Notes under the pieces: generated by a model | Database searches by the model: none | Told to the model about the DNA's origin: nothing | What the model saw: the letters and a program-made list of their open reading frames with translations, nothing else | Assembly (NCBI GenBank): GCA_947623995.1 | Contig: CANQIN010000002.1 | Span: 1-51,336 of the forward strand | Direction: 5' to 3' | Length of the DNA stretch: 51,336 nt | DNA from: an uncultured Bacilli bacterium | Lineage (GTDB): Bacteria > Bacillota_I > Bacilli_A > RF39 > UBA660 | Part shown: positions 14,944-50,208 of the stretch, one piece after another | Layout: every line of letters begins with the position of its first letter | Numbering within the stretch: position 1 is the first letter of the stretch | Position numbers and translations under genes: made by a program

Positions 14944-14974
14944 CACTCATCACTCCTTTAGTATACTAAAAAAG

Positions 14975-21649: not shown

Positions 21650-21681
21650 ATTATAACCCATAACCCCCCCCCCTGTGTCAA
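21650..21681 (-). promoter_or_regulatory. Switch promoter P3: TTGACA-CA-G10-TTATGGGT-TATAAT (20-nt spacer)
   Basis: -35 at 21681-21676; plus-strand C10 at 21664-21673; -10 at 21655-21650. The ATG is at 21622. Confidence 0.7.
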
Positions 21682-23363: not shown

Positions 23364-23403
23364 AACACATTCTCCTTGTATAACTATTATTTTTATTATC
23401 AAT

Positions 23404-25598: not shown

Positions 25599-26945
25599 TC
25601 AAAATGTTAATCGAAAAGGATTATCTATTGAACCGTAATTATCACTTTCATCTGATTCAATATAGACTTTATTATTTAAATATACAGTTGGTAAAATATT
25701 TGCTTCCTGATTTACATCACCCCAATAAATACCACTCATAGTAGAACTTATAGCAGTTTTATTAGAATTATCAAAATGAGTAGTTAAAAACCAATGACTA
25801 TCAGTATACAACCAATTAATATTTTCAATTGTATAACATGTACTATCAAAATCTAGTAATTTTTTTTCTAAGCAAGTTTCTCTATCATTTGCAACTGCAT
25901 AGCCATAATCTGATGGATAAATTAACCCAACTCCATTATGATATTTTGAATCATTTTCTCTGGTCCATACACTTGGATAGCCACTTTCTTTTACTGAAAC
26001 ACTTCTTTCTTTTTCATACATCGTTGGTGCATTATATATATCATTTGGTTCACCCAAATTCCATATAACATCTTTATCAATCATCAGCCTTGCTTCTTCA
26101 TTTAATCCTTTTGAATTTATATTATCTTGAGTAAAATCACATTCTGTTGGAATAGGATTATTTACATCTTGATAGCAATCACCAATCTCACTATTATAAT
26201 ATATGCCATTTAACATATCTTTTAAAGTTGAAGTTGTCCAATCATTATTATATGTAGATTTATAATCCCAACTATAATATCCTAAATCATCCATAAAGTG
26301 AAAATCTTCATTTTCATCAGTCCAAAATACATTTGAAATTCTTGTTAATTTTACTCTTTGTTCTATTCCACTATCAGTTTGAACGTTTACGAGTCCAATA
26401 ATTCTCCATATTTCATCATTAAATGCTATATAATTATTAGGATCTTCTCCAGCATATCGATATTCTATTTTATTCCAGCCACTATCTATTTCAGTAACAC
26501 TATGATCTACTTTATACAATCCATCACCAGTCTCTACAATAGGAATATCTCTATTTAATTGAAAACCAGTTTGTTCTTTAAAATATAAGCTACACTTTGT
26601 CTTTACTTTTTTTAATCCTTTTACTAATGGGGCCCATTCATTGTTGTTCCATTCAATACTTGCTCCATTATCACATTCACCATGGTCAAATACTAAATTA
26701 TCTGGATTATCTTTTACTGGCATCGTATCTAACTGTTCATCACCTTTATAGAATGCAAAATAAATATCGCTATTACCAAAATAATCAACTTTTCCTTTCA
26801 TCATTGGAAATTCTGCACTTTCCGTAAAACTTGCAAAGGTTTTATATAGAAGTAATGAGACACTTATTAAGACTATTACACTTATACTTATCAATATTGT
26901 TTTTCTTCTTTTCTTACTTTTATCTTCATATTTTTTTAGCTTCAT
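25599..26945 (-). CDS. Paralog family member, class-I N-module with type-b C-module
   Basis: N-terminus ..YKTFASFTESAEFPMMKGKVDYFGNSDIYFAFYKGDEQLDTMP..GECDNGASIEWNNNEWAPLVKGLKKVKTKCSLYF. C-module motifs EYRYAGEDPNNYIAFNDEIWRIIGLVNV, LKDMLNGIYYNSEIGDCY, GLIYPSDYGYA, PTVYL and DNPFRLTF. Confidence 0.85.
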   Translation of the reverse strand: MKLKKYEDKSKKRRKTILISISVIVLISVSLLLYKTFASFTESAEFPMMKGKVDYFGNSDIYFAFYKGDEQLDTMPVKDNPDNLVFDHGECDNGASIEWNNNEWAPLVKGLKKVKTKCSLYFKEQTGFQLNRDIPIVETGDGLYKVDHSVTEIDSGWNKIEYRYAGEDPNNYIAFNDEIWRIIGLVNVQTDSGIEQRVKLTRISNVFWTDENEDFHFMDDLGYYSWDYKSTYNNDWTTSTLKDMLNGIYYNSEIGDCYQDVNNPIPTECDFTQDNINSKGLNEEARLMIDKDVIWNLGEPNDIYNAPTMYEKERSVSVKESGYPSVWTRENDSKYHNGVGLIYPSDYGYAVANDRETCLEKKLLDFDSTCYTIENINWLYTDSHWFLTTHFDNSNKTAISSTMSGIYWGDVNQEANILPTVYLNNKVYIESDESDNYGSIDNPFRLTF

Positions 26946-26967: not shown

Positions 26968-26998
26968 ATTATAGCATTTACCCCCCCCCCTATGTCAA
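26968..26998 (-). promoter_or_regulatory. Switch promoter P4: TTGACA-TA-G10-TAAATGC-TATAAT (19-nt spacer)
   Basis: -35 at 26998-26993; plus-strand C10 at 26981-26990; -10 at 26973-26968. The ATG is at 26945. Confidence 0.7.
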
Positions 26999-27254: not shown

Positions 27255-28421
27255 TTAGGCATCAATTGATGATACTACACCAGCACCAACAGTACGTCCA
27301 CCTTCACGAATTGAGAATTTAGTACCATTTTCAAGTGCTACAGGCGCAATTAATTCAACAGTCATGTCAACATTATCACCAGGCATAACCATTTCAGTAC
27401 CTTCAGGTAACTCGATAACACCAGTTACGTCTGTAGTACGGAAATAAAATTGTGGACGATAATTTGAGAAGAATGGAGTATGACGTCCGCCTTCTTCTTT
27501 AGTTAAGACATAAACGCTAGCTTTAAATTTGTGATGAGGAACAATACTTCCTGGTTTAGCAAGAACTTGTCCACGTTCAACTTCATCACGAGCGATACCA
27601 CGAAGTAATACACCAGCATTATCACCAGCTTGAGCATAGTCTAGAGATTTTCTAAACATTTCAATACCAGTAACAACTGTCTTCTTAGTATCTTTTAAAC
27701 CAACGATTTCAACTTCGTCATTTAATTTTAATTGTCCACGTTCAACACGTCCAGTAACAACTGTACCACGTCCAGAAATTGTAAATACATCTTCAATACT
27801 CATTAAGAATGGTTTGTCAGTATCTCTTTCTGGTGAAGGAATATATTCGTCAACAGCTTTCATTAAATCTCTAATAGATTGTTCAGCTTCAGGATCTCCT
27901 TCAATAGCTTTAAGAGCAGATCCACGGATAATAGGACATTCAGTATCGAATTCATATTCTCCTAATAATTCACGAATTTCCATTTCTACTAAGTCAAGTA
28001 ATTCAGGATCATCAACTTGGTCACATTTATTCATGTAAACAACAATTTTAGGAACTCCAACTTGACGAGATAGTAAAATATGTTCTCTTGTTTGAGGCAT
28101 AGGACCATCTGCAGCAGACACTACTAAGATTGCTCCATCCATTTGAGCAGCTCCAGTAATCATGTTTTTAACATAGTCAGCATGTCCTGGGCAGTCAACG
28201 TGAGCATAATGACGTTTTTCAGTTTCATACTCAACGTGAGCAGTATTAATAGTAATACCTCTTTCTCTTTCTTCTGGTGCTTTGTCGATATCTGCATATT
28301 CAACATATTTACCAAATAATTTTGTAATAGCAGCTGTTAATGTTGTTTTACCATGGTCAACGTGTCCAATAGTACCAATATTAACATGTTCTTTTGAACG
28401 GTCAAATTTTTCTTTTGCCAT
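27255..28421 (-). CDS. tuf: Elongation factor Tu
   Basis: [18 protein letters not shown] and NKCD motifs; full-length EF-Tu similarity pattern. Confidence 0.97.
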
Positions 28422-28488
28422 TTTTTGTTTCTCTCCTTTCAGTATTTATTTTATCTAATGCTTGAATTAATTTCAAGTATTATTTAGA

Positions 28489-30564
28489 TTAGTTAACGCT
28501 GTTTTTCTTAATTATTTCTTCAGCGATAGATTTTGGAACTTCTTCATAATGGTCTAATTCCATTGTAAAGTTTCCACGACCTTGAGTATTAGAACGCAAA
28601 CTAGTTGCATAACCAAACATTTCAGCTAATGGAACCATTGCTGTAATAGCTAGGGCATTACCACGTGATTCTTGTCCTAGAGGACGACCACGACGACTTG
28701 TTAAGTCACCCATAACATTACCCATGTATTCATCTGGAACAATAACAGTTACTTTCATGATTGGTTCTAATATTACAGGTTTACATTTATTTTTAGTTTC
28801 TTTAACTGCAAGACTAGCAGCAATTTTGAAAGCCATTTCAGATGAGTCAACATCATGATATGAACCATCAAATAATGTTGCTTTAACATCAACCATTGGG
28901 TATCCAGCAAGTACACCACCGGCCATAGCCTCTTGTAAACCTTTATCTGTTACTGGGATATATTCACGAGGAACAACACCACCAACGATAGCATCAACAA
29001 ATTCATAACCTTTGTCTTTATTTGGTTCAAAACGAACCCATACATGACCATATTGTCCACGTCCACCTGATTGTTTAATATACTTACCTTCACATTCACC
29101 CATTTGAGTAATTGTTTCACGATAAGCAACTTGTGGACGACCAATATTAGCATCAACGTTAAATTCTCTTCTCATTCTTTCAACTTGAACCTCTAAATGA
29201 AGTTCTCCCATACCACTGATAATAGTTTGACCAGTTTCAGGATCAGTTTTATAACGGAAAGTAGGATCTTCTTCAGCTAATTTTTGTAAAGCTGTACCTA
29301 ACTTTTCTTGATCAGCTTTTGATTTTGGTTCAATAGCTTCATCAATAACTGGTAAAGGAAATTCCATACCTTTCATAATAACTGGATGTTTTTCATCACA
29401 TAAAGTATCAGCAGTTGTGGTATTTTTAAGTCCTACAGCAGCGGCAATTTCACCACAATAAACTTCAGATATTTCTTTACGATTATTAGCATGCATTTGT
29501 AGGATACGACCAATACGTTCTTTTTCACCTTTAGTACTATTCATAATGTATGAACCACTAGTTAAATGACCAGAATAAACTCTAAAGAAAGCTAGTCGTC
29601 CAACAAATGGATCAGCCATAATCTTAAATGCTAAAGCTGTAAATGGTTCTGAATCACTTGGATGACGCATAACATCTTCACCAGTTTTAGGATCATAACA
29701 TTCAATAGATGGAACATCAGTAGGAGCAGGTAAATAATCAATTACAGCATCTAATAATAATTTAATACCTTTATTTGATAAAGCATCACCACATAATACT
29801 GGATAAAATTGATTAGATAAAACACCTTTTCTAATTGCACTTTTAATTTCTTCAACACTTAATTCTTCACCATTTAAGTATTTTTCCATTAATTCGTCAT
29901 CAAATTCAACAACAGTTTCAATTAAATCAGCTCTTTTAGTTTCAACTAAATCTTTTAAATCAGCAGGTATTTCAATTTCAACAGCATTTTCTTCTTCTTT
30001 ACCATCATATTGATAAGCTTTTCTTGTAATTAAATCAACAATACCATTAAATTCATTTTCAGCTCCAATAGGCCATTCAATAGGTTTAGCATTTGCTCCT
30101 AATCTTTTAGAAATAGTTTCTAGACTATAAGCAAAATCAGCTCCTAATTTTCCCATTTTATTACACATAATCATTCTTGGAACTTTAAATTCATCTGCTT
30201 GACGCCAAACCGTTTCAGTTTGAGGTTCAACACCAGCTTGAGCATCTAAAAGGGCAACAGCACCATCTAATACTCTAAGACTTCTTGAAACTTCAACAGT
30301 AAAGTCGACATGGCCTGGAGTATCGATAATATTAAAACGATATCCTTTCCAATGCGCTGTAGTTGCAGCAGAGGTAATAGTAATACCACGTTCTTTTTCT
30401 TGATCCATCCAGTCCATTTGTGATTCACCATCGTGAGTTTCACCAATTTTATGAATACGACCAGTATGATATAAAATTCTTTCAGTTGTCGTAGTCTTAC
30501 CAGCATCAATATGAGCCATTATTCCAATATTTCTTACTTTATCAATAGCAACATCTCTAGCCAT
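28489..30564 (-). CDS. fusA: Elongation factor G
   Basis: [23 protein letters not shown] and NKMD motifs; 691 aa. Confidence 0.97.
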
Positions 30565-30575
30565 AATTTACCTCC

Positions 30576-31043
30576 TTACCATCTATAATGAGCAAACGCT
30601 TTATTTGCTTCAGCCATTTTGTGAGTATCTTCACGCTTTTTAACAGCACCACCAGTACCATTGGCAGCATCCATAATTTCATTTGCTAAATTAATAGCCA
30701 TACCTTTACCATTACGGTTTTTAGCATAATTAACAAGCCAACGTAAAGCAAGGGTTTGACTACGGTCTTCACTAACTTCAATTGGAACTTGATAATTAGA
30801 ACCACCAACACGACGAGATTTAACTTCTAGCATTGGTTTAATATTTTCTAAAGCACTTTGATATACTTCCATAGCTGGTTTTCCCGTTTTCTTTTCAACT
30901 ATATCAAATGCTTCATATAAAATCTTTTGAGCAGTTCCTTTTTTACCATCTTGCATAATTTGATTGATTAATTTAGTAACAACCTTGGAATTATATACAG
31001 AATCTGGTAATACATCTCTTTTAATTGCTCTTCTCTTACGCAT
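30576..31043 (-). CDS. rpsG: 30S ribosomal protein S7
   Basis: 155 aa, ending ..[10 protein letters not shown]. It occupies the canonical str-operon position. Confidence 0.95.
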
Positions 31044-31061
31044 ATTATTTTCCTCCTTCTA

Positions 31062-31475
31062 TTATTTTTTAGGTTTTTTAGCTCCGTATTTACTACGTCC
31101 TTGTTTTCGGTTTGCAACACCTTGAGTATCAAGAGTTCCTCTAACAACGTGATAACGAACACCGATTAGGTCTTTAACACGTCCACCACGAATTAAAACA
31201 ACACTATGTTCTTGAAGGTTATGTCCTTCACCTGGAATATAAGTATCTACTTCTTTACCATTAGAAAGTCTAACACGAGCATATTTACGTAATGCTGAGT
31301 TCGGTTTCTTAGGGGTTTTAGTACCAACACGAGTACATACGCCACGTTTTTGAGGACTTGGATTATTAGTTTGTTTTCTTTCTAAAGTATTCATTCCGAC
31401 ATTTAAAACGGGACTTTTACTCTTCTTAGTTTTCTTACTTCTTCCTTTTTTAACAAGTTGATTAATAGTAGTCAT
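31062..31475 (-). CDS. rpsL: 30S ribosomal protein S12
   Basis: [12 protein letters not shown].., [10 protein letters not shown] and RGGRVKDL motifs. Confidence 0.95.
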
Positions 31476-31689: not shown

Positions 31690-33015
31690 CTATTGAACTG
31701 ATAATACAAAAGGCGAATTTATATCTCCTGTTCCATCAACAATTTTTGTAGAAGTTGTTAAATATAAAGTTGGCCAAACCATAATTTCGGAATTGACACG
31801 ATAATCACTGCTAGTTACCCAACCTTCATATTCTACATAGAATGCATGATTGGAATCATTAGAATCTAGTGATAAAGTCCATAGACAATAATAGGGACTT
31901 GGAGTTAACCAATCATTTGTATAGCAATTACCTCCATCATAATCATATAAATTTTTGACTAAACAATTATTCCTTACTTCTCCTCCTACGGCATAACCGT
32001 AATCACTTGGATAAATTAAGCCTATTCCATTATGCTTTTCTCCTACATCTGTTTCAATACTCCATTCACTTGGATATGTATTACTACTTCCTGTACTTGT
32101 TCCCCTTTCTTTTTCATAAAATTGTTTTGCTGTTATTGTCTCTGTATCCCATCCACCTATATTCCAGCTTACTTCTTTATCTATCATATTTCTTGCTGTA
32201 TCATCTAATCCTTTTGGTAAAATTGCTCCTGTATTAAAATCACACTGGCTTACTATACCACTACTGCTATTATAGCAATCTCCTATTCCACTTTCATAGT
32301 ATATTCCATTCAGCATATCTTTTAATGACGAAGTATTCCAATTATTAGTATCTGTATCCCAATAATACTGGCCAAAATCCTTTTGGCCTTTTACACCATC
32401 TTGTCTTACTATTTTTAGTCTTTGCTCTATTCCACTTTCAGTTTTTACATTTACTAAACCTATAATTCGCCAGATTTCATTATTAAAGAATACATAATTA
32501 TCTGGATCAGCTCCAGCATATCGATATTCAGTTTGATTCCATTCTTGACCAAGTTCTTCTAAATCATCATGAGTTACGACATAAAGTCCATCTCCACTTT
32601 CTACTACTGGTATTTTCATTCCGCCTAATTCTACACCTACTTGTTCTTTAAAATATAAACTACATTTAGTCTTACTTTTACTTAAATTTTTAACCATTGG
32701 TCCCCATTTTTCACTATTCCATTCGATTGTTGCTCCATTATCACATATTCCATGGTCAAATACCAAATTTTCTTCATTACCATTCTGAGGCATTTCATCT
32801 AATTGTTCATCACCTTTATAGAACGCAAAATAAATATCACTATTACCAAAATAATCTACTTTACCTTTCATCATAGGAAATTCAGCACTTTCAGTAAAAC
32901 TTGCAAAGGTTTTATATAATAGAAAAGAAACACTTATTAACACTATTACACTAATGGTTATTAGTATTGTTTTTCTTGTTTTACTATTCTTATCAACATA
33001 CTTTTCTAGCTTCAT
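31690..33015 (-). CDS. Paralog family member, class-I N-module with type-b C-module
   Basis: Same N-terminus and N-module as 25599-26945 (..GICDNGATIEWNSEKWGPMVKNLSKSKTKCSLYF). C-module motifs EYRYAGADPDNYVFFNNEIWRIIGLVNV, LKDMLNGIYYESGIGDCY and GLIYPSDYGYAVGG. Confidence 0.85.
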   Translation of the reverse strand: MKLEKYVDKNSKTRKTILITISVIVLISVSFLLYKTFASFTESAEFPMMKGKVDYFGNSDIYFAFYKGDEQLDEMPQNGNEENLVFDHGICDNGATIEWNSEKWGPMVKNLSKSKTKCSLYFKEQVGVELGGMKIPVVESGDGLYVVTHDDLEELGQEWNQTEYRYAGADPDNYVFFNNEIWRIIGLVNVKTESGIEQRLKIVRQDGVKGQKDFGQYYWDTDTNNWNTSSLKDMLNGIYYESGIGDCYNSSSGIVSQCDFNTGAILPKGLDDTARNMIDKEVSWNIGGWDTETITAKQFYEKERGTSTGSSNTYPSEWSIETDVGEKHNGIGLIYPSDYGYAVGGEVRNNCLVKNLYDYDGGNCYTNDWLTPSPYYCLWTLSLDSNDSNHAFYVEYEGWVTSSDYRVNSEIMVWPTLYLTTSTKIVDGTGDINSPFVLSVQ

Positions 33016-33038: not shown

Positions 33039-33071
33039 ATTATAAACTTTAAAACCCCCCCCCCATGTCAA
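33039..33071 (-). promoter_or_regulatory. Switch promoter P5: TTGACA-T-G10-TTTTAAAGTT-TATAAT (21-nt spacer)
   Basis: -35 at 33071-33066; plus-strand C10 at 33055-33064; -10 at 33044-33039. The ATG is at 33015. Confidence 0.7.
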
Positions 33072-33262: not shown

Positions 33263-34597
33263 TTATGATTCTAAAATAAATGGATTATCAATTGTTCCAT
33301 ATTCTTTTTCAGGTTTAGAATTCGGAAGTATTTTAACATTATTTTTTAAATATAGTGTTGGCCAAACGCCTTTACTGTATAGACCAGAATTACGCACATA
33401 TCCATACAAACCAATATAAAATGCACCACGTGAGTATGAAGAATTAGGTGTTAAAGACCATGAATCGCCATCAATAGGTTTTAACCAGTCAGTTCCAGCA
33501 CATTCACTTTGATAATTTATAATATTATTTTCCCAGTTATATAATTCTTTTGTAAAGCATGCTTCCCTTCCTAAATTACCTCCATTAGTCGCATAACCAT
33601 AGTCACTTGGATAAATTAATCCTATTCCATTATGTTTTCCTAATGGATCATTTTTATTACTCCATTCAATTGGATAATCGCTATTTCCAGTTACACTTCC
33701 CCGTTCTTTCTCATAAAAAACATTTACTAAAACATCATTTTCTGGAAAAACTCCTCCAATATTCCAAATTACTTCTTTATCTATCATTTTTCTTGCAGTT
33801 TCATCTAAGCCTTTTGGCAAATTACTGTTTCCTGTGAAATCACATTCATTTTGAGTATCTTGATTTTCATTAATTACTGGAAAACATTCACCTATCGTAC
33901 TTTCATAATATATGCCATTTAACATATCTTTTAATGTTGAAGTATTCCAATTGTTTACATATCTATCCCAAACATAGTTTCCAAAATTTTTTTGAGCATC
34001 AATACCATCGGTTCTCACAATTTTAATTCTTTGTTCTATACCTCTTGCAGTTGCAACATTTACTAAGCCTATTATTCGCCATGTCTCATTATTAAATTTG
34101 ACATAATTATTTGGATTAGAACCTGCATATCGATATTCTATTTTATTCCATTCTTTATTTATTCCATTTACTTCATGACTTACTTTATACAGTCCATCTC
34201 CACTTTCAATTGTTGAAACATTTTTTATAAAATCTATTCCTGATGATTGCCTAAAATATAAAGCACACTTAGTTTTACTTTTACTTAAATTCTTTACTAA
34301 TGGGGCCCATTCTACTTCATCCCAAAGAACATATGCACCATTGTCACATTTTCCATAATCAAAAACTAAATCTTCATTATTATCTTTATCTGGCATTTCA
34401 TCTATTTGTTCTTCTCCTTTATAAAATGCAAAATAATCTACTTTTCCCTTCATCATTGGAAATTCTTCACTTTCGGTAAAAGATGCAAATGTGTTATATA
34501 ACAAAAAAGAAATACTTATTAAGACTATTATGCTTATAGTTATTAGTATTGTTTTTCTTCTTTTTTTATCTTTATTATTATTCTTTTCTAGCTTCAT
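33263..34597 (-). CDS. Paralog family member, class-I N-module (7-codon deletion variant) with type-b C-module
   Basis: ..FASFTESEEFPMMKGKVDYFAFYKGEEQ.. lacks GNSDIYF. The rest includes GKCDNGAYVLWDEVEWAPLVKNLSKSKTKCALYF, EYRYAGSNPNNYVKFNNETWRIIGLVNV and GLIYPSDYGYA. Confidence 0.85.
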   Translation of the reverse strand: MKLEKNNNKDKKRRKTILITISIIVLISISFLLYNTFASFTESEEFPMMKGKVDYFAFYKGEEQIDEMPDKDNNEDLVFDYGKCDNGAYVLWDEVEWAPLVKNLSKSKTKCALYFRQSSGIDFIKNVSTIESGDGLYKVSHEVNGINKEWNKIEYRYAGSNPNNYVKFNNETWRIIGLVNVATARGIEQRIKIVRTDGIDAQKNFGNYVWDRYVNNWNTSTLKDMLNGIYYESTIGECFPVINENQDTQNECDFTGNSNLPKGLDETARKMIDKEVIWNIGGVFPENDVLVNVFYEKERGSVTGNSDYPIEWSNKNDPLGKHNGIGLIYPSDYGYATNGGNLGREACFTKELYNWENNIINYQSECAGTDWLKPIDGDSWSLTPNSSYSRGAFYIGLYGYVRNSGLYSKGVWPTLYLKNNVKILPNSKPEKEYGTIDNPFILES

Positions 34598-34620
34598 TTT
34601 ATCACTCTATTCTTAGAGTA

Positions 34621-34652
34621 ATTATAAACCTATACCCCCCCCCCTATGTCAA
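34621..34652 (-). promoter_or_regulatory. Switch promoter P6: TTGACA-TA-G10-TATAGGTT-TATAAT (20-nt spacer)
   Basis: -35 at 34652-34647; plus-strand C10 at 34635-34644; -10 at 34626-34621. The ATG is at 34597. Confidence 0.7.
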
Positions 34653-34735
34653 CATTTAAATTATTATTTTAAACCACTTTTTATGTTTATACTATAAATT
34701 TTCTTTTTTTGAAAATTATTATTCATAAAAAAATC

Positions 34736-36328
34736 GGCTCTAAATAATTTAGTGGGGAGCAAAATTTCATTAAAGCATTATAAAATAAGGGTTTGTCCCT
34801 TATTTTTTGCATTCAAAAAAATTTTATGTTTTTTGAATGCTAATAACACTTATTTTTCTATTTTTTTGATTTCTTTCTTTTTTGGTAATTCCACTTATTT
34901 TTCCATTCATAATATACATAATTCTTAATCTAAAAAAATGAAAATTTTTATATCCAAATCCTATTCTTTTTATGACTTTTATTTTATTATTGATGCCTTC
35001 TGTATAACCATTTGAAAACCTTTTATCTATAAATGAATTAACTATATAGGGTAACCAATTTTCTATTGTTTTTGCTGCTTCTTTCATTTCTTCTATTCCA
35101 TAATTTTGTACTGTACTTATCCATTCTTTTAATTCACTTTCTGCATATTCATAAGTTGTTGTATGTAATACATCAAAAAATAATTCTTTTAATAAATATC
35201 CCTTTTGTAATTCTTCATTTATTGCTAGTATCTCTTCTCTTAAATCATACTTTAATATATCTACCATATGTCCATTTTTATATCTTTTGGTATATGTATA
35301 CCAGTCGACTTCATTGCTATATTTTCTGAGTAATGTTACATTTTTTTTATTTTTTAACATTCTGTATTCTTTTGTATTATATCCATAATTTTTTTGTAAT
35401 TTGATTCTTATTTTATCTAGCGCATCCATTACATATCGTGTATAATGAAATCTATCTACTACATATTTAGCTTTGGGAAACATTATTTGCTGTACGAGTA
35501 GATATGGTTCGTACATATCACTTATGACGAACTCCACTGAATGTCTATTTTCAGTATATGTAAAATACTGAATCAGATATTCTTTTTTTCTATTTGGTAA
35601 TATATCTAATACTTTTCTATGAATTGGATCATTGATAATAAATGCATATTTTCCTTCTTTCGTGTCTGCTTTAAATTCGTCAAATGATATAACTCTTGGT
35701 AAATTCTTTATATGCTCTGGATATTTACTCATTGCATTCTCTAATATATTTCTTATCGTTCCTGCTGATACATTATTACTTTCTGCTATATATTTTAAAG
35801 ATAAATTGTAATTCATTAAATCTTTTAATATTTTTTGTTCTAATTTAGTGGATATTGATTTTCCTTTTTCATTTAATGATAATTCTTCTGTAAATCTTTT
35901 ATTACATTTATGACATATAAACCTTTTCTTTACTATATTTATTGTAGTTTCTTGCTCCATTATTTTTAAATATTTAATTTCTATGGGTTTTAATTTATCA
36001 TGTATGCTTTTTGTATATTCTCCACATTTTGGGCATTTATCTTTTTTCTTTTTACTTTCTACATATATTATTTTTTTCACTTTTTTATTTTCCTCTCTTT
36101 CTTCTATTTTTATTATTTTGTATTCTTCTAACTTTAACAATTTTTCAATTTCATTCATTCTTTTTCACCTCCAATTCCTTATTAAAAAATTGCTCATTTA
36201 TTATACAATAAAAAAAGAAGATAACATTTCTATTATCTCCCCACTAGACTGTCTAGCTTTCTTGATAAAACTCCCCACTAGATTTTCTTAACTGGAATTT
36301 TTATCTCCCCACTAAATTATCTAGAACC
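34736..36328 (-). mobile_element. ISL3-family insertion sequence (1593 bp) with an 8-bp target duplication
   Basis: The inverted repeats are GGCTCTAAATAATTTAGTGGGGAG (34736-34759) and the complement of 36305-36328 (GGTTCTAGATAATTTAGTGGGGAG), matching 22/24. The target duplication AAAAAATC is at 34728-34735 and 36329-36336. An uninterrupted homologous site is present at 21737-21760. Three CTCCCCACTA subterminal repeats sit in 34-bp phase (36237, 36271, 36305). Confidence 0.9.
34824..36158 (-). CDS. ISL3-family transposase
   Basis: N-terminal zinc-finger pairs CPKCG..CHKC, a DDE region including the DRFH motif, 444 aa. Confidence 0.9.
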   Translation of the reverse strand: MNEIEKLLKLEEYKIIKIEEREENKKVKKIIYVESKKKKDKCPKCGEYTKSIHDKLKPIEIKYLKIMEQETTINIVKKRFICHKCNKRFTEELSLNEKGKSISTKLEQKILKDLMNYNLSLKYIAESNNVSAGTIRNILENAMSKYPEHIKNLPRVISFDEFKADTKEGKYAFIINDPIHRKVLDILPNRKKEYLIQYFTYTENRHSVEFVISDMYEPYLLVQQIMFPKAKYVVDRFHYTRYVMDALDKIRIKLQKNYGYNTKEYRMLKNKKNVTLLRKYSNEVDWYTYTKRYKNGHMVDILKYDLREEILAINEELQKGYLLKELFFDVLHTTTYEYAESELKEWISTVQNYGIEEMKEAAKTIENWLPYIVNSFIDKRFSNGYTEGINNKIKVIKRIGFGYKNFHFFRLRIMYIMNGKISGITKKERNQKNRKISVISIQKT

Positions 36329-36371
36329 AAAAAATCTAACTTGTAATTTAACAAATTAGATTTAATAGTTT

Positions 36372-37955
36372 TTATCCTAAAATAAAAGGATTATCTATAC
36401 TTCCATATTCTTTTTCAGGATTGGGATTTTCTAATATTTTAACAGTTGATTTTAAATAAGCTACTGGTTTAACATCATAACCATTTAAAGCTCCATGCGT
36501 AATTATCCGTGTTTCATATAGATGATATACATCTAGTGCCGAGTTGTTTAATGGTGTAAGGGTCCAATTATATTCAGAAGTTATTCGTAACCAATTATTG
36601 TTATTGCAATCCTCATCATATGCATCCAAATTTTTTTGAAGACAGTTATTTCTTGCTTCTCCTCCTACCGCATAACCAAAATCTGAGGGATACAGCAAAG
36701 CAATATATCCATCCCATGCTGTAGTTCTTTCTACTTCATCATTGCAAAACGTTCCATATTCACATTGCTTACTTTTATTTTTACTTCTCTCACCATTATA
36801 CATGTAATCAGCAGTCTTATTTCCATTAGGTGTACCAAGGTTCCATTTAACTTTTGATATAAGAGTTTTTGCCTTATCACTCAACCCACTATTAGTAAAA
36901 TCACATTTTTTATTTTCATTATTTATCCAAAAAAAACATTCTCCATCTTTTTGATTCCAAAATAAACTATTATTAGCTTTAATTTCTTCACCAACATTAT
37001 TTGTTTCCATATTATCGTCATATCCAGGATTTAATAATTTCATTAAGTCTGCTTGGCTCCATTCATTTATTCCATATCCATAGTTTATTGTTTGTATGCT
37101 ACTATCCCAGCTATAGATTCCAATACTATCTGCTCTTATTATTTTTACTAAACTTTCTTGCTTTTCAATATCATCTAAACTTGTGATGTTATTCATAACA
37201 CCGATTACTCGCCATAATATTGGTTGTCCTTCACCATCTCTATCTCCTATATCTATATAGTTATTTGGCTCTGCTCCAATATATCTTAAATTATTATCTT
37301 TGGTATTATCATATGCTAAATTTGTTTCTTCGGTTTTGGCTATTTCTTCTATATAATCACTTGCTACTTGTTCACCTATTTTTCCTTCAACCACTATTTT
37401 TGATTTTGCTATTTCATTTTCTATTCCACTTTCTTTTGTTACTTCTTCTTTTATCCATAATCTTAACTCATAGTTTACACTTTCTAATTTTCTTAATCTT
37501 CCTTCTGTTAATTGACGACTTTCTTTTGCTTCACTTATTTTTGGTATTTCATTTTCAGGATATTTACTTAATATTTTAGGTTCTGTTTCTGTTTCTTCTT
37601 TATTTAATAATACTTTTATATTTTCACTATTTAATGTTGTTTCATTTAACATTTCTAAATTTATACTATAATCTACATAATTTTCACATTCATTACGGAT
37701 TGTAAATTTATATGGCTCTAGAATTTTTCCTTCTACATCTGTTTTTGGAAATGTATTTGTTAAACTTATGTTATCTTCTTTATTTGTTAATTCTATATCT
37801 AAACAACTTGTACTTAAGATATTTTCATTTGTTTGTTCTTTTGTTATTACCCACAAAGCATAACTTACTCCTATGGTTATTAATAGTAATACTATTAATA
37901 CAATAGTTATTATTTTAATTTTATTTTTTGGTTTTTCATAACTTTCTAAATTCAC
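36372..37955 (-). CDS. Paralog family member, class-II N-module with type-a-derived C-module
   Basis: Residues ~30-300 are near-identical to 21786-23363 (SYALWVITKEQTNEN... through ..LVKIIRAD), after which the sequences diverge. A GTG start at 37955 or 37964 follows a class-I type GAGTGAT leader. Confidence 0.8.
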   Translation of the reverse strand: MNLESYEKPKNKIKIITIVLIVLLLITIGVSYALWVITKEQTNENILSTSCLDIELTNKEDNISLTNTFPKTDVEGKILEPYKFTIRNECENYVDYSINLEMLNETTLNSENIKVLLNKEETETEPKILSKYPENEIPKISEAKESRQLTEGRLRKLESVNYELRLWIKEEVTKESGIENEIAKSKIVVEGKIGEQVASDYIEEIAKTEETNLAYDNTKDNNLRYIGAEPNNYIDIGDRDGEGQPILWRVIGVMNNITSLDDIEKQESLVKIIRADSIGIYSWDSSIQTINYGYGINEWSQADLMKLLNPGYDDNMETNNVGEEIKANNSLFWNQKDGECFFWINNENKKCDFTNSGLSDKAKTLISKVKWNLGTPNGNKTADYMYNGERSKNKSKQCEYGTFCNDEVERTTAWDGYIALLYPSDFGYAVGGEARNNCLQKNLDAYDEDCNNNNWLRITSEYNWTLTPLNNSALDVYHLYETRIITHGALNGYDVKPVAYLKSTVKILENPNPEKEYGSIDNPFILG

Positions 37956-37981
37956 TATTATCACTCAATTCTATAATTTAT

Positions 37982-38001
37982 ATTATAGCTCATAACGTCA
38001 A
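37982..38001 (-). promoter_or_regulatory. Switch-promoter homolog lacking the G tract (TTGACG-8 nt-TATAAT)
   Basis: Minus strand TTGACG TTATGAGC TATAAT aligns with P3 (TTGACA CA-G10-TTATGGGT TATAAT) once CA+G10 is removed. The leader AGAATTGAGTGATAAT is retained. Confidence 0.35.
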
Positions 38002-38079: not shown

Positions 38080-39186
38080 TTAAACACTTTCTGTTAGATT
38101 AATTGTTATTTCAAGAGTATCACTACCTCTTAATACTTTAACTTTAATGCTTTCTCCTACATTATGATTAAATAATAAATATCTTAAATAAGCTATACTA
38201 GTTACTTCTTTACCATCCATTTCCGTAATTATATCACCATCTTTTAATCCAGCTTTGTCAGCAGGACTATCGCTATTAACATCTTCAATAAATACGCCAT
38301 TAGCTATATCTAAATCATTTAATTTTGGATAATATAAATATTGAGCTTCTGCTAAATTACGCATGGTGATACCTAATAATGGCCTTTTTATTGTTTCTCC
38401 TTTTTCTAATTTTTCGGCAAAATTCATTGCTGTTTCAATAGGTATTGCAAAGCCCATTCCTTCAACTCCAGTACTTGCAAGTTTAAGTGAAGTAATACCA
38501 ATGACTTCACCATTAGCATTTACTAAAGGTCCACCTGAATTTCCTGAGTTAATAGCTGCATCAGTTTGTAATACACTCATCATCATATCATTAGTAGTAC
38601 TGTTTGATAATGATACACCTACTAAACGATTTTTACCTGATAAAATTCCTCTTGTAACTGTCCCAGAATATGAATCAGCATCAAGTGGAGCCCCTACAGA
38701 AAATACTGTATCTCCAATTTTAGCATCTTCACTACTTCCTATACTTGCTACTTTATCAGCTTCTTTTTTACTTACTGTTAAAACTGCAATATCAGAATAA
38801 GCATCTTTACCAGCAACCTTAGTTTCAACTAAATTACCATTAGTAAATTCGACAAATATTGAATCTCCTTTTTCAATAACATGATTATTAGTTAAAATAT
38901 AAGCATTATTATCATCAGTTTTATAAACAAATCCTGTACCTGTAGCATATAATTGTTTCTTTTGATATGTTCTTACAACAACAACAGCATCATAAATCTT
39001 ATCTACTGCTTCACTAATACCATTATCAACAATACTAACATTTTTAGTTTCAACTTGTTCACTTACCGTTTTAATAAATGGTTCTGGAAAAAAATACATT
39101 AATAAATATAAACCTCCAGCTCCTAAGAAAAACATTACTACGGCAATTAACCAATACTTTCCATCATTACTTTTTTTATTTTCCAT
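38080..39186 (-). CDS. htrA: HtrA/DegP-family serine protease with a PDZ domain
   Basis: N-terminal TM helix, H..D..GNSGGPL catalytic pattern (TNNHV, DIAVL, GNSGGPLVN) and a C-terminal PDZ-like region (GLKDGDIITEMDGKEV). Confidence 0.9.
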   Translation of the reverse strand: MENKKSNDGKYWLIAVVMFFLGAGGLYLLMYFFPEPFIKTVSEQVETKNVSIVDNGISEAVDKIYDAVVVVRTYQKKQLYATGTGFVYKTDDNNAYILTNNHVIEKGDSIFVEFTNGNLVETKVAGKDAYSDIAVLTVSKKEADKVASIGSSEDAKIGDTVFSVGAPLDADSYSGTVTRGILSGKNRLVGVSLSNSTTNDMMMSVLQTDAAINSGNSGGPLVNANGEVIGITSLKLASTGVEGMGFAIPIETAMNFAEKLEKGETIKRPLLGITMRNLAEAQYLYYPKLNDLDIANGVFIEDVNSDSPADKAGLKDGDIITEMDGKEVTSIAYLRYLLFNHNVGESIKVKVLRGSDTLEITINLTESV

Positions 39187-40112
39187 TATAAATCCACTAT
39201 CCTTTCATAATTAAGAGGAAATCCCATTTCATTTAATACTTTTTCAATAGAAATACTATGTAACTTTTCCTCTAAAATTTTTACTTCATATTTTAATTCA
39301 CTAATTAATAAAGAAAAATCATTCTTTCTTAACATTTGTTTTAATATTATTATAAGCGCGAATAAATCATTTTTACCATAAATATATTCATTATCAATTT
39401 CTGGTATTTTTAAACTTTGATGATATTTAGTATTTTCAATATCATGTTGAGCTTTATGACTATATAAAATATCTTCATGAGCACATAAATTTCTAAAGTT
39501 TGCTAAGATTGGTAAGTATACTAATAAATCATCTCTTGATATTTTAAAATCTTCAGCTATAGACTTTTGATCTTCAAATTTTAAGATTTGATAAAATTCC
39601 CCAACTATCCCAAACGATAAAATTTTAACCACAATCCATAAAGGAATATATCCATATTTATCCATATAATGCATTGTTGCTTGATGTTGTCCCCCATTTA
39701 TTCTTATTTGTCTTTTCATTTTTCTTAGTAAATCATCTACTTGTTTTTTTCTTTTACGATCATTAGTAAAATTCTTAGGATCTAAATATTGTCTTTCTTT
39801 ATATCCATAACGCATAGATAAGTTATAAGCAATAATACTTTTAATATTATTTTCAATAATAAGAAGGTTTTTAAAAATTATATTTCTGATATGGCGATCA
39901 AAATGAAACATCGCATATAGTTCATCAAAATCAGCACCAGGAATAAAACTTTTATCGCTTTCACTAACCATAAATAATAGTCGATAACCATTTAAGAAAA
40001 AATAATTTTCTCTTAGTAAGGTTTCCTTGGCTTCTAAAATATTATTTATGATAAGACCTTTACTTTGTAATATATTAATTTGCTCATCTAAAGTTTTAAA
40101 TGTCTTATTCAT
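39186..40112 (-). CDS. Abi_2 (AbiD/AbiF-like) abortive-infection family protein
   Basis: The N-terminus TLDEQINILQSKGLIINN..ETLLRENYFFLNGYR and the later ..NLCAHEDILY are typical of Abi-like proteins. Its TAA stop overlaps the htrA ATG by 1 nt (TAATG). Confidence 0.7.
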   Translation of the reverse strand: MNKTFKTLDEQINILQSKGLIINNILEAKETLLRENYFFLNGYRLLFMVSESDKSFIPGADFDELYAMFHFDRHIRNIIFKNLLIIENNIKSIIAYNLSMRYGYKERQYLDPKNFTNDRKRKKQVDDLLRKMKRQIRINGGQHQATMHYMDKYGYIPLWIVVKILSFGIVGEFYQILKFEDQKSIAEDFKISRDDLLVYLPILANFRNLCAHEDILYSHKAQHDIENTKYHQSLKIPEIDNEYIYGKNDLFALIIILKQMLRKNDFSLLISELKYEVKILEEKLHSISIEKVLNEMGFPLNYERIVDL

Positions 40113-40266
40113 TGCCCACCTCTTATCCTAAAAGACATTATATCACAAAGTATGTTTTAATTGTAGTTTTTATTAATGACCTTTTTGTTAACATTTTGTG
40201 AAAAATAAGTGAATTTATTATTTAAAAATAATATGATATAATGGATAAGCTTAAAGGAGTGAATTT

Positions 40267-41208
40267 ATGCCATCAATTGTAACTCATCATTTATTTGCTA
40301 AGGATTGTTTACTAAATTATGAAAAAAAAGTTAATAAAGATATTTATTATATCTTTGCTCAAAGTTTTGATAATTTAGCTTATTATCATTTTTTTACGAG
40401 CTTTAATAATGAAATTAAAAATATAGGAAAAATAGCTCAAAGTTCTAAAACAAATGAATATTTTTTAAATTTATTAAATTATATAAAAGATAATAATTTA
40501 AAAGAAGATAAAGACATTATTGGTTATTTATTTGGCAGTATTTGTCATTATGCTTTAGATTCAACTTGTCATCCTTTTGTTGTTTATGAAACAGGTGCAG
40601 TTAGTATTGATCAAAAATATCGTGGTGGTCATGAAAAAATGGAAGTCATGATAGATGCGATTATGTATGAAGAAAAAGAACATAAACCATTATATAAAGA
40701 AAGTTTAAGTGATACTTTACTTCCTAAAGTAAAATTTTCCAATAATTTAAAAAAAGCCTTAGACTTTACTTTTAATAAAACTTTTAAGATAAAAAAAATG
40801 GGTATTAAATATGAAAAGGCTTATAAAACTGGTAATTTCATTTTAAAATATTTTGTAACTGATAAAACTGGTATTAAAAAGAAAATTTATAAAATAAAAG
40901 ATCATTTTGGTAAAGGTAGAATGTACCAATATTTAAGTTTTAATATTAAAAAATTAGATAATAGTTTTCTTAATTTAGAACATAATGAATGGTGCTATCC
41001 TACTGATAATACAATTATTAAAAATAGTTCATTTTTTGATTTATATGATGAATCTATTATTTTTGCTAGAAGGCTTTTTAAAGTTAGTTTAGATTATTTG
41101 AATAATAAAATAGCTGAAAATAATTTAAATAAAGAATTTAAAGATTTAGCTTATTCATCAGGATTAGATTGGCGTTTAAAAAGTAAAACAAAGTATTTTA
41201 AATTTTGA
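40267..41208 (+). CDS. Zinc-dependent phospholipase C-like family protein (tentative)
   Basis: GGAG SD. N-terminus MPSIVTHHLFAKD and HYALDSTCHPFV His-rich motifs. The gene ends with a TGA stop. Confidence 0.45.
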   Translation: MPSIVTHHLFAKDCLLNYEKKVNKDIYYIFAQSFDNLAYYHFFTSFNNEIKNIGKIAQSSKTNEYFLNLLNYIKDNNLKEDKDIIGYLFGSICHYALDSTCHPFVVYETGAVSIDQKYRGGHEKMEVMIDAIMYEEKEHKPLYKESLSDTLLPKVKFSNNLKKALDFTFNKTFKIKKMGIKYEKAYKTGNFILKYFVTDKTGIKKKIYKIKDHFGKGRMYQYLSFNIKKLDNSFLNLEHNEWCYPTDNTIIKNSSFFDLYDESIIFARRLFKVSLDYLNNKIAENNLNKEFKDLAYSSGLDWRLKSKTKYFKF

Positions 41209-42866: not shown

Positions 42867-44426
42867 TTAAGATAAAGTAAAGGGATTATCTGTTGTTCCG
42901 TTACCATTAGTTATTTTAACATTTGATTTTAAATATAAAACTGGCTTCACTGATAACTGCGATATTGGGGGAGTAACATAACTTACACATCCATCATAAT
43001 TTACAAACATAGTCCCATCGGTCAATCTAGGATTAATTGTCCATTGTGTTATTCCCTTTTCGTATAACCAATCATTTTCAACACATTCCAAAGAAATTTC
43101 TTCAGACCAAGATCTTAAATTCCTATTTAAGCAAGTATCTCTTTTTACATTACTTCCTCCGCTAGTAGCAAAACCATAATCGCTAACATACATTAAACCT
43201 ATTTTTCCAATCCAATTCATGTTATTTTTATGTTCATTTTCATAAAAATAATTAGGAATAAATCCTCCACCACCAAGTGAACTATTTGTATATATAACAT
43301 TACTTATATATGCTTTAGCATCTAAATTTAAACCAGTATCTTTAAAATCGCAAACTATCGTTTCGCCATTTGTTGGACATTCGCCTTTAATTTTTTCCCA
43401 GTATGCTCCATTATTTAAAATTTGTTGTAAATCAGAAAAATTCCAATCATTTCTGGAATTATTATCCCAACTAAAATTACCTATTGAATCCTTTCTAATA
43501 ATTTTCATATGGCTTCCAACTGTTTGGGATTTACTTTCATCTTCACTTACTTCGGTTACATTATTCATAACTCCGATGATTTGCCATAATATTGGATTCC
43601 CTTCACTATCTCTATCACCTATATCTATATAATTATTTGGATTAGACCCAATATATCTTAAATTGTTATCATCGGTTCCTAATTCTTCTCCTAAACTTTC
43701 TTTTCCATCATATGCTAAGTTTATTGTATCTAAATTTGCATTTTCTTTCATACAGGTTACTGCATCTTTTCCTTCTGCTCCACACTTTGCTACTGCACTT
43801 CCATATACTTCTCCTATATCATTACTTTCTGTTGCTGCATTTATTACATTGATACTTGCTTCAAATGTTTGTCCTTCTACTTCATTTCCAGCAATGTCAT
43901 CTATCCATAAATATAAATTGTAGGTTACTTCTTCTCCATTATTTACTACTCCATCAACTTTTGTTCCTCCACTTAATACTCCTGTGTCTAATATATATGA
44001 TGTCCCTAAATTCTCTACCATTAAATTTTCTAAATCAGTATTTATTCTACTTAATTTACTTCCAACATTTGGTTTTTCTTCACTACTTTTATATAAAGCA
44101 TATTTTATTTTACTTGCATCTAAGGTATTTGTACTTAATGTATTTAATGTTAAGACATAATTATTATTAATAGTACAGGTATTTGTTATGGTAAATGTAT
44201 AAGGATTTGTACTTAATCCTATACTATCATTTACTGGATACGTATTATCTAATTTTATACTTTCACTTTGCTCACTAAATCCTATACTAAAACATCCTAC
44301 ATCCATCTCATTTTCATTTGTTTGTTCTTCGGTTATTATCCACAAAGCATATGATTGGGTTATATATAAACATCCCACTAACATTAATCCTATTATTAAT
44401 AATGATAATTTATATCTTACTTTCAT
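42867..44426 (-). CDS. Paralog family member, class-II (group 2) N-module with a hybrid type-a/c C-module
   Basis: MKVRYKLSLLIIGLMLVGCLYITQSYALWIITEEQTNENEMDVGCFSIGF... The first ~275 aa are near-identical to the 46740, 48574 and 50386 copies. C-module motifs NNYIDIGDRDSEGNPILWQIIGVMNN, GLMYVSDYGFA, PVLYLKS and DNPFTLS. Confidence 0.85.
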   Translation of the reverse strand: MKVRYKLSLLIIGLMLVGCLYITQSYALWIITEEQTNENEMDVGCFSIGFSEQSESIKLDNTYPVNDSIGLSTNPYTFTITNTCTINNNYVLTLNTLSTNTLDASKIKYALYKSSEEKPNVGSKLSRINTDLENLMVENLGTSYILDTGVLSGGTKVDGVVNNGEEVTYNLYLWIDDIAGNEVEGQTFEASINVINAATESNDIGEVYGSAVAKCGAEGKDAVTCMKENANLDTINLAYDGKESLGEELGTDDNNLRYIGSNPNNYIDIGDRDSEGNPILWQIIGVMNNVTEVSEDESKSQTVGSHMKIIRKDSIGNFSWDNNSRNDWNFSDLQQILNNGAYWEKIKGECPTNGETIVCDFKDTGLNLDAKAYISNVIYTNSSLGGGGFIPNYFYENEHKNNMNWIGKIGLMYVSDYGFATSGGSNVKRDTCLNRNLRSWSEEISLECVENDWLYEKGITQWTINPRLTDGTMFVNYDGCVSYVTPPISQLSVKPVLYLKSNVKITNGNGTTDNPFTLS

Positions 44427-44687
44427 TTTTACCAATCCCTATTCTTAAGTTATTTAAAGTATATCAAATTTCTAACGAAAAGTCTTTATATTTTATAAAG
44501 TTATTGGTAAAATCTTGTTATTATAATTTTTTTAAAATAGTAAAAAAGCATAAAAACTATAATATTTAGTTATTTCTTTAAAACTAAATTTATAAAAAGA
44601 AATTTAAAAAGATTGTACATAATATAAATAAGAAATAGATTAAACAATTGACATAATAAACTTTTTTTCGTTTTTTAAATATTTATA

Positions 44688-44879
44688 AAGACAAAATAAA
44701 TATCACTATTACTAAAATAATCTACTTTGCCATTCATCATTGGAAATGAAACATTCTCAGAAAAGGAAGCAAAGGTTTTATAAAGTAAAAAAGAAACTTA
44801 TTAACACAATTACACTTATGCTTATTAATATTATTTTTCTTCTTTTACTTTCTTTATCAACATACTTTTCTAGTTTCAT
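44688..44879 (-). pseudogene. 5' remnant of a class-I paralog (frameshifted, truncated after ~60 codons)
   Basis: It translates from 44879 as MKLEKYVDKESKRRKIILISISVIVLISFFFTL*. A shifted frame continues ..FPMMNGKVDYFSNSDIYFVF, then homology ends near 44688. Confidence 0.7.
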
Positions 44880-44901
44880 TATAATCATCCATTCTACTAT
44901 G

Positions 44902-44932
44902 ATTATAGCTCTTGACCTATCCTCCATGTCAA
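44902..44932 (-). promoter_or_regulatory. Switch-promoter homolog with a degenerated tract (TTGACA-TGGAGGATAGG..-TATAAT, 19-nt spacer)
   Basis: -35 at 44932-44927 and -10 at 44907-44902. The position of the G10 is occupied by GGAGGATAGG. The upstream flank matches P5. Confidence 0.5.
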
Positions 44933-45112: not shown

Positions 45113-45967
45113 TTAAGTATTTTTCTGTTTTTTTATTAATTTAGAATGAACAACAATTCTACCACCATAATTATTTTGGCATGTTGATAAAGTAAGAATT
45201 TTATCATTTTCATTTACTAAAGTATCTATGGGAGCCACATTACGTTTTTTCATTTCATTAAGCCAATTTTTCTTTTTTTCAATACTTGCAAAATTTGGCG
45301 TAATATAATAAGATTCTTTAGGAATTGTATAAATAGAAAAAATTTGAAAAAGCATATTTTCTTTTAAAGTTGATAAGTATATTACATAATTATCTTTATT
45401 ATTTTGCCATTCTGATGTTAATACAAGATTTAATGATCCAAAAAGTGTTGCATCTAATCTAGAATGACCATATATAACATTATTATCTACTAAATCTATT
45501 AAGTTACCTCGAAAATCTAAAAATATCCAACCAGCTTTATTTTCACTTTTATCAAATGAATGATTCAAATAAAACTCATTATCAGATCCTTGAACAACAG
45601 GATAATTAACAGCAGTATTATTAATTTTTATATAACCAACTGTATTATTATTTTTTAATAATAATTTTGAAAAATTAACTGTTAAAAATGGGAAATTAAT
45701 ATAATAGAAATAATTATCATTTAAATTATTTGGAGGATTAACTAATTGTTGATTTTCATTATTATTTTTAATATCTATAATTTCATTAATTTCATTATTT
45801 ATTTGTCGAATTTTGGAATTATTAATTTGCCAATTTAATATAGTATATATTGAGAAGATAAAAATAAGAAGACACAAAATAAAAATTATATTTTTTAATA
45901 ACTTCTTTTGAGCTTTAACATTATTTTGTTCTTTAAAATAATCTTCTATAGAAATATATTTTTTCAC
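45113..45967 (-). CDS. srtB: Class B sortase
   Basis: N-terminal TM anchor, VIYGHSR and the catalytic TLSTC motif, then a conserved Arg region (GGRIVVHSKL). The start is a GTG behind a GAAGGTGA SD. Confidence 0.8.
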   Translation of the reverse strand: MKKYISIEDYFKEQNNVKAQKKLLKNIIFILCLLIFIFSIYTILNWQINNSKIRQINNEINEIIDIKNNNENQQLVNPPNNLNDNYFYYINFPFLTVNFSKLLLKNNNTVGYIKINNTAVNYPVVQGSDNEFYLNHSFDKSENKAGWIFLDFRGNLIDLVDNNVIYGHSRLDATLFGSLNLVLTSEWQNNKDNYVIYLSTLKENMLFQIFSIYTIPKESYYITPNFASIEKKKNWLNEMKKRNVAPIDTLVNENDKILTLSTCQNNYGGRIVVHSKLIKKQKNT

Positions 45968-48365: not shown

Positions 48366-48395
48366 ATTACCAATCCCTATTCTTAAGTTATTTAA

Positions 48396-48424
48396 AGTAT
48401 ACAATAATTTAACATTTTTAGCAA
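48396..48424 (-). promoter_or_regulatory. Tract-free promoter of 46740-48365
   Basis: TTGCTA (48424-48419), 17 nt, TATACT (48401-48396). Confidence 0.55.
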
Positions 48425-50178: not shown

Positions 50179-50208
50179 ATTACCAATCCCTATTCTTAAG
50201 TTATTTAA

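Follow-up and report, generated by a model that had tools for sequence, protein, structure and literature searches.

P6, a probable poly-G on/off switch promoter of a membrane-anchored protein family in an uncultured gut Bacilli lineage, with an ISL3 insertion upstream

Here, we describe P6, a sigma-70-type promoter with a run of ten guanines (G10) in the spacer between its -35 and -10 hexamers, located in a 51,336-nt stretch of DNA from an uncultured Bacilli bacterium of the rabbit gut (the window, meaning this stretch at its full length). We consider it likely that the spacer poly-G tract is hypermutable, that P6 acts as a slippage on/off switch for a member of a membrane-anchored protein family, and that the ISL3 element close upstream is a recent arrival that is probably not driving the gene. 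The switch reading appears well supported for the class of promoters to which P6 belongs and is probable for P6 itself.

[quoted passage not shown] At G10, the 20-nt spacer of P6, three above the normal 17, would leave the promoter off or very weak, and contraction to about G7-G8 would bring the spacer to 17-18 nt and turn P6 on. The genome has at least seven promoters of this kind, one for each of as many paralogues of the family, and, because each paralogue has a separate tract, cells would display different subsets of the family. The outcome would be stochastic phase and antigenic variation, presumably under host immunity or phage pressure. The ISL3 element would have inserted lately in the U tail of the upstream gene's terminator, leaving the promoter module whole, and probably does not drive the gene behind P6 (G6). 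For P6, we infer the slippage, the control of transcription by tract length, the on lengths and the selective agent.

Anatomy of P6, its sister promoters and their genes

Read on the minus strand, P6 comprises, in order, TTGACA, TA, G10, TATAGGTT and TATAAT, with a spacer of 20 nt (2+10+8), and 23 nt separate its -10 box from the ATG at 34597 of ORF 33263-34597. This reading bears out the arrangement given in the preliminary description, including its 20-nt spacer and downstream ORF, as well as the statement there that the core promoter and the upstream motif AAGTGGTTTAAAAT (34679-34666) are intact. The -35 and -10 boxes are assigned by consensus match. The features of the P6 locus are as follows.

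34666-34679, minus strand: upstream motif AAGTGGTTTAAAAT, 26-27 nt 5' of the -35 box, part of a lineage-specific promoter module
34647-34652, minus strand: -35 hexamer TTGACA of P6, invariant across all six paralogous promoters
34635-34644, minus strand: G10 homopolymeric tract in the P6 spacer (C10 on the plus strand), the proposed slippage site
34621-34626, minus strand: -10 hexamer TATAAT of P6, 20 nt from the -35 box
34598-34620, minus strand: leader TACTCTAAGAATAGAGTGATAAA, short and conserved, with a Shine-Dalgarno-like GAGTGAT and a 7-bp palindrome/hairpin
33263-34597, minus strand: G6, 444 aa, from an unnamed family; a membrane helix at the N terminus precedes a beta-sandwich and an alpha/beta domain that has conserved cysteines

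The AAGTGGTTTAAAAT motif recurs at P3 (21707), at a decayed promoter copy (44959), at a tract-less copy (38027) and at a locus from another metagenome-assembled genome (MAG; L019), and a variant of it is found at P5 (33097). The exact P6 leader sequence had zero matches in a scan of JGI metagenomes. The leaders of P1-P6 have in common a palindrome of 6-7 bp, ACTCTA-AGAA-TAGAGT, across the probable start site and the ribosome-binding site, with matching changes in both arms at P4; in P6, it gives a hairpin (UACUCUA-AGAA-UAGAGUG) with a dG of -6.1 and a z-score of -3.4. The palindrome could be an operator or a 5' hairpin. Its conservation beyond this genome is weak, with pairing kept only in part in other MAGs, and we do not claim a conserved RNA hairpin.

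The window holds six promoters of this kind, P6 included. All six contain a G10 run on the minus strand, 1-2 nt past a perfect TTGACA and 7-10 nt ahead of a perfect TATAAT, and no other G or C run of 6 or more is present in these 51 kb of 26% GC. The number of G10 runs expected from 100 dinucleotide-preserving shuffles was 0.00, so that chance is excluded. Perfect pairs of the two hexamers are confined in the window to the six switch promoters and one decayed copy. When the six regions are aligned, both hexamers, the tract and a block close to the ribosome-binding site are invariant, and the remainder averages 64% identity; the spacers of P1-P6 measure 21, 20, 20, 19, 21 and 20 nt, respectively. 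The sister promoters and the two aberrant copies are listed below.

10653-10685, minus strand: P1, G10, spacer 21 nt, ahead of ORF 9262-10629; G10 in all four runs
12643-12674, minus strand: P2, G10, spacer 20 nt, ahead of ORF 11249-12619
21650-21681, minus strand: P3, G10 in the window, spacer 20 nt, ahead of ORF 19904-21622; G9 in one of four runs
26968-26998, minus strand: P4, G10, spacer 19 nt, extended -10 (TGc), ahead of ORF 25599-26945
33039-33071, minus strand: P5, G10, spacer 21 nt, ahead of ORF 31690-33015
37982-38001, minus strand: tract-less promoter copy (TTGACG, 8 nt, TATAAT) with the AAGTGGTTTAAAAT motif, upstream of the H-type ORF 36372-37964
44902-44932, minus strand: decayed promoter copy, tract degenerated to GGAGGATAGG, with a truncated family ORF downstream

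At 44932, where the gene has decayed, the tract has decayed as well. The decayed member itself (44700-44932, minus strand) stops past the membrane helix, and out-of-frame remnants of an FPMM.GKVDYF motif follow. The ORF behind the tract-less copy begins with GTG, and this copy may be silent or follow a different pattern of expression. The same sample contains a further, seventh switch promoter with G10 and a 20-nt spacer, which lies beyond the window and is flanked by an ftsH-like gene and a gene for a SpoU methylase (L227, ENA ERZ27249377 NODE_1811); its position indicates that the family is dispersed in the genome. A gene 85% identical to G6 from another rabbit sample (P0001, L084) has a resembling promoter with an intact G10.

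The ORFs behind the six promoters, G1-G6, are paralogues with 33-56% identity, except that G3 matches the others over the first ~100 residues only. The AlphaFold model of G6 is confident (pLDDT 85) and places the membrane helix at residues 9-41, next to a beta-sandwich and a larger domain of alpha/beta type that contains conserved cysteines, and the family product is predicted to be membrane-anchored and extracellular. The G6 product had no match among Pfam, NCBIfam and PDB sequence profiles, and a likeness of the C-terminal part to DUF6273 or Fib_succ-type domains was unsupported by domain scans. Homologues of G6 number 2,659, the best 120 of which carry neither a source name nor a Pfam domain. 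Five more ORFs in the window, along with a partial one at its end, have in common with the G-type proteins a C-terminal domain of ~300 residues (30-61% identity between the two types), joined to another N-terminal module, and have no G tract.

21786-23402, 36372-37964, 42867-44435, 46740-48404, 48574-50217 and 50386-51216: H-type paralogues (522-554 aa)

Two of these, 46740-48404 and 48574-50217, arose as a tandem duplication, and the sequences upstream of them are identical. The switch genes G4 and G5 are separated by the str operon (rpsL, rpsG, fusA, tuf; 27255-31475). Elsewhere in the window, the interval 13104-18224 encodes a two-component system (a HisKA/HATPase_c kinase and a response regulator), an ABC ATPase and an 859-aa FtsX/MacB-type permease, a layout that we take to resemble Bce-like modules for peptide-antibiotic sensing and detoxification. 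Three further intervals (4529-9133; 38080-41208; 45113-45967) hold a 1,534-aa secreted-looking protein without a Pfam match, an HtrA-like protease, an Abi_2 protein, a Zn-dependent phospholipase C-like protein and a sortase.

Tract-length variation and spacer geometry

The class of promoters to which P6 belongs varies in tract length. At P3, the unique Logan contig that spans the tract is 157 nt long with C10 in three of four runs of one sample (X1-X3) and 156 nt long with C9 in the fourth (X4), and is otherwise identical. The ENA assembly of one of the four runs also gives G9 at P3 (L218), in a contig one nucleotide shorter than that of the sister assembly over the same region (47,479 vs 47,480 nt), and the sisters L095 and L096 have G10. 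Given that the majority length at P3 flips between replicate runs, both G9 and G10 must be frequent in the sample. Between samples, an identical protein, P0008, is found behind the same orthologous promoter in six samples, with G10 in four and G9 in one (L222), the flanks of the G9 promoter being identical to those of a G10 promoter (L221). In the sixth (L226, ENA ERZ27249295, coverage about 3x), unrelated sequence replaces the -35 box and the tract, leaving GG; either the tract region was deleted or rearranged, or the contig may be misassembled owing to its low coverage. Among 17 clusters of promoters with identical flanks, tract length differs in 4 and is uniform in 13, as judged from consensus lengths.

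The preliminary description named P6 a switch promoter. For the class, this stands, on the 17-nt norm, the G9/G10 differences at P3 and the P0008 promoter, and runs that shift reading frames (below); P6 itself is G10 throughout, in the window and likewise in each of the three readable ENA assemblies of this strain. These three appear to be replicate runs of one sample, so that their agreement says little for fixity. The P6 length was read from these assemblies; the Logan unitig graph breaks at the repeated leader and promoter, and no Logan contig spans 34635-34644. P1, P4 and P5 are likewise G10 in each assembly and run examined (P5 is spanned gap-free by a Logan contig in all four runs), and the P2 consensus is also G10. 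The Logan unitig that spans P2 (12637-12698) has about half the single-copy depth (15 vs about 30) in X1 and X4, a weak hint of length heterogeneity there. Samples X5-X7 were too shallow, and too divergent at P4, for tract comparison.

Related loci amounting to 247 kb contain 36 G-runs of at least 6, every one of them on the gene strand; the lengths are 8, 9, 10, 11 and 13, besides some of 6. The MAG Lapin-022_bin17 has its G run inside the ORF, just past the membrane helix, where G10 breaks the frame with an early stop in at least seven paralogues and a single G9 copy (L075) is in frame (intragenic-tract loci L040, L043, L044, L050, L052, L053, L071 and L075 in this MAG; also L010 and L079). 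This intragenic run appears to be the classical translational form of the switch, and one protein family would then use both transcriptional and translational poly-G switching in different species. In an unrelated organism, three metagenome contigs of 55-57% GC (L194, L197, L216) contain an orthologous locus whose promoter is built in the same way, and the tract lengths among the three are G16, G9 and G10; these lengths are direct evidence, in another organism, of hypervariable tracts.

In the window, the three strong promoters outside the switch class each have a spacer of 17 nt, and the 19-21 nt of the switch promoters compared with this ordinary spacing predicts that they are off or weak at G10. 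Two relatives reach the 17-nt spacer, namely L012, whose tract is G8, and L047, whose tract is G9. The MAG of L012 also contains L005, where a similar promoter has a 20-nt spacer with G11. Across MAG species, the modal total spacer is 20 nt (L005, L006, L007, L011, L019, L025 and P2, P3 and P6 of the window), and this total is reached by different shares of tract and flanks, namely 2+10+8, 3+10+7 and 4+11+5. A mutational mode would be a sufficient cause of uniform tract length and does not obviously cover the conserved 20-nt total, which simple drift does not account for either, nor does an off state defined as any length besides 17. From G10, a spacer of 17-18 nt is two or three successive contractions away, so that these promoters sit farther from the on state than textbook one-step switches. 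One doubtful though conceivable explanation is that 20 nt is a set point by design, the on length plus three guanines, with the promoters parked deep in the off state as a multi-step 'counting' switch, or else a form recognised by a factor. If the counting version were true, firing would be rare and effectively mutually exclusive among dozens of paralogues.

The same 20-nt total bears on another explanation, under which G10 is a fixed-length cis-element, either the site of a regulator or part of a 20-nt spacer realigned by an activator, and P6 is regulated physiologically rather than stochastically. The constancy of G10 at P6, P1, P4 and P5, the recurrence of the 20-nt spacer across MAG species despite differing tract and flank shares, and the conserved upstream motif and start-region palindrome, which could be protein sites, would all fit such an element. 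We nonetheless regard it as unlikely, given the G9/G10 polymorphism within a sample at P3 and between samples at the P0008 promoter, the range of 8-13 among relatives' tracts, some with 17-nt spacers, and the intragenic G10/G9 frame switches, which make no sense for a fixed element. Moreover, MerR-type operators are dyad-symmetric, and the P6 tract is not. A MerR-type activated promoter was considered only because of the recurrent 20-nt spacer, and the dyad operator expected in an over-long spacer of this kind is lacking in TA-G10-TATAGGTT.

The ISL3 insertion upstream of P6

The insertion sequence (IS) upstream of P6 and the structures around it are as follows.

34736-36328, minus strand: ISL3-family IS, 1,593 bp, with 29-nt imperfect terminal inverted repeats, single copy in the strain
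34824-36158, minus strand: ISL3 transposase ORF, 444 aa, in the same orientation as G6
34728-34735: target-site duplication, copy 1, AAAAAATC on the plus strand
36329-36336: target-site duplication, copy 2, AAAAAATC on the plus strand
36332-36363, minus strand: terminator-like hairpin of gene 36372-37964, with a 13-bp stem and a U tail (dG -22.7, z -5.0)
34782-34840, minus strand: two consecutive hairpins inside the IS, past the transposase stop (dG -32 kcal/mol, z -4.75)

The transposase matches the Pfam domains DDE_Tnp_ISL3 (PF01610, 8.7e-58) and Zn_ribbon_ISL3 (PF14690, 1.9e-10), as expected for ISL3; the inverted repeats (34736-34764 and 36300-36328) are 86% complementary, and the 8-bp duplication AAAAAATC is perfect on both sides of the element. 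The repeats and the duplication confirm the start of the element at 34736, which the preliminary description had placed 84 bp upstream of P6 (34736 - 34652 = 84, measured to the -35 box). The IS landed in the U tail of the terminator hairpin of gene 36372-37964, and the same hairpin is found uninterrupted upstream of P3, where the order is terminator, AAGTGGTTTAAAAT motif, switch promoter. Removal in silico of the IS and one copy of the duplication yields a sequence collinear with the P3 upstream region at 90% identity, so that the P6 promoter module is untouched. The contig across the junction (34653-34798) is at single-copy depth and the exact transposase is seen only at the G6 locus, which together point to a recent, single-copy insertion. 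A search for a G6 locus free of the IS found none: wherever the exact G6 protein was seen, the exact transposase was seen too, and vice versa, all within one sample set. The paralogous site at P3 was therefore used to stand in for the empty site.

It is quite improbable, in our estimate, that the IS has taken over G6, by read-through from the transposase gene or from a hybrid promoter at the IS end, and drives it regardless of tract length, leaving this copy unlocked. The transposase and G6 are co-oriented, with 226 bp from the transposase stop to the G6 ATG; the IS separates P6 from the upstream terminator, and a hybrid promoter with a 9/12 match, the only outward one at the IS end, crosses the boundary (TTTAGA, 18 nt, AATAAT; 34744-34715). 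However, matches of this quality are at chance level (37 found vs 38.7 expected), and the two strong hairpins follow the transposase stop, none of 200 shuffles being as stable as the pair. The second hairpin (34782-34806), taken alone, has a 10-bp stem followed by a U-rich stretch and is terminator-like; in the computed fold, this stretch pairs with the 5' end of the folded segment, and a consensus terminator scan did not call the hairpin. The hairpins and the chance-level hybrid promoter weaken the idea of outward transcription from the IS that had been raised earlier, and the tract and both boxes of P6 are still perfectly preserved. Transcription from the IS into G6 is possible but not favoured, and the element, a clean insertion outside the promoter module, is probably harmless.

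Distribution, significance and comparison with known systems

All relatives come from gut MAGs of uncultured, low-GC organisms recorded as Bacilli or Tenericutes; the hosts are rabbit, chicken, mouse and human. A census of the pattern TTGACA-N1-4-G8+-N6-14-TATAAT returned more than 120 metagenome loci, including a large cluster of contigs of 22-28% GC, several of them labelled human gut metagenome (L103, L126, L137, L139, L141-L143, L149, L152, L157, L163, L164, L167, L173, L190 and others). The promoters of this cluster take the forms TTGACA-ACCT-G8-TGTTTTA-TATAAT (spacer 19) and TTGACA-T-G8/9-TATATTA-TATAAT (spacer 16), and the ORFs behind them encode a membrane helix and then YALFSFTKTS-type N-termini, like the H-type genes of the window. 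That the G10 runs are sequencing or assembly artefacts (two-colour poly-G, collapsed homopolymers) might be suspected from the short-read metagenome assemblies that make up all the data, the error-prone nature of G homopolymers and the uniform value of 10, but is scarcely credible, given that the runs lie in the interior of long contigs between unique flanking sequences, recur in both SPAdes (ENA) and Logan assemblies and in rabbit, chicken, mouse and human gut studies, occupy the same promoter or ORF position on the gene strand every time, and that lengths of 8, 9, 11 and 13 assemble without difficulty.

Most of what is known about phase variation through simple sequence repeats comes from a few cultured pathogens, and the promoters described here, as we read them, extend it to an uncultured low-GC lineage of gut commensals. 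In this lineage, the switch would control a very large unannotated family, and the position of the tract, promoter or ORF, differs between related species. No description of such a switch in these lineages was found in the literature searched. If the switch reading is confirmed, these 'dark' proteins would stand out as antigens or receptors at the cell surface that host IgA or phage drives to diversify; the succession of TTGACA, G-tract and TATAAT would be a signature for phase-variable genes in metagenomes, and consensus MAG sequences would hide on/off states at the population level. The IS beside P6 adds little.

Compared with known switches, P6 has the architecture of the porA, tp0126 and vlp type, with a tract of at least about 7 between the -35 and -10 boxes, and precedes a member of a paralogous family whose surface exposure is a prediction. 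By geometry alone, its spacer is 20 nt at G10 against a norm of 17. The heterogeneity of such tracts is seen in the class (G9/G10 at P3 and the P0008 promoter), and P6 is G10 only, in four assemblies.

Neisseria meningitidis porA encodes a surface protein, and the spacer of its sigma-70-type promoter contains a poly-G tract whose length sets the distance between -35 and -10 and, with it, the expression level (as summarised in PMC7864442). A poly-G tract between -35 and -10 ahead of a surface protein gene (predicted in the case of P6) is what the two have in common. However, porA is a single gene of a Gram-negative pathogen with usual lengths at or one step from the 17-nt optimum, whereas the P6 class is a multi-copy array in an uncultured low-GC gut bacterium, is parked at 19-21 nt and has been read from sequence only.

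In Treponema pallidum, tp0126 has a poly-G tract between -35 and -10 with an optimum spacer of 17, lengths of 8 or less being permissive and longer ones silent, and in poly-G promoters of this species one length dominates, with minorities one or two guanines away (PMC7864442). The tp0126/tpr pattern fits the G10 majority, the G9 minority and the on state of about G7-G8 proposed here, and tp0126 and tpr (E, G, J, L) resemble the P6 class in having poly-G in the promoters of a paralogous surface-protein family. They differ in the unrelated phylum and protein family, in the position of the tprE/G/J/L tract, which is just upstream of the start site and not in the spacer, and in resting on fragment-length and reporter data, the P6 class being known from its sequence alone.

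In the AT-rich genome of Campylobacter jejuni, poly-G tracts have a sharp modal length, which is attributed to mutational bias, G8 mostly gaining and G11 mostly losing (PMC3401435). Such a bias offers an explanation for the G10 mode here, and intragenic tracts of C. jejuni switch frame like those of the Lapin-022_bin17 relatives; in contrast to the P6 class, C. jejuni tracts are mostly intragenic, with a mode of G9, and lie mostly in surface-glycan modification genes rather than in one paralogous family.

The vlp genes of Mycoplasma hyorhinis form a multigene surface-protein family in a wall-less low-GC relative of Bacilli, and each gene has its own homopolymer between -35 and -10, which results in independent, combinatorial on/off switching. 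The vlp tract is poly-A of about 17 nt, and Vlp proteins are lipoproteins with repetitive C-termini, unrelated to the G6 family. A family of independently tracted genes is present here as well, with six paralogues that have their own tract in the window and one elsewhere in the genome. Taken with these precedents, the P6 class reads as the known porA/tp0126-type poly-G promoter switch in a new lineage and gene family.
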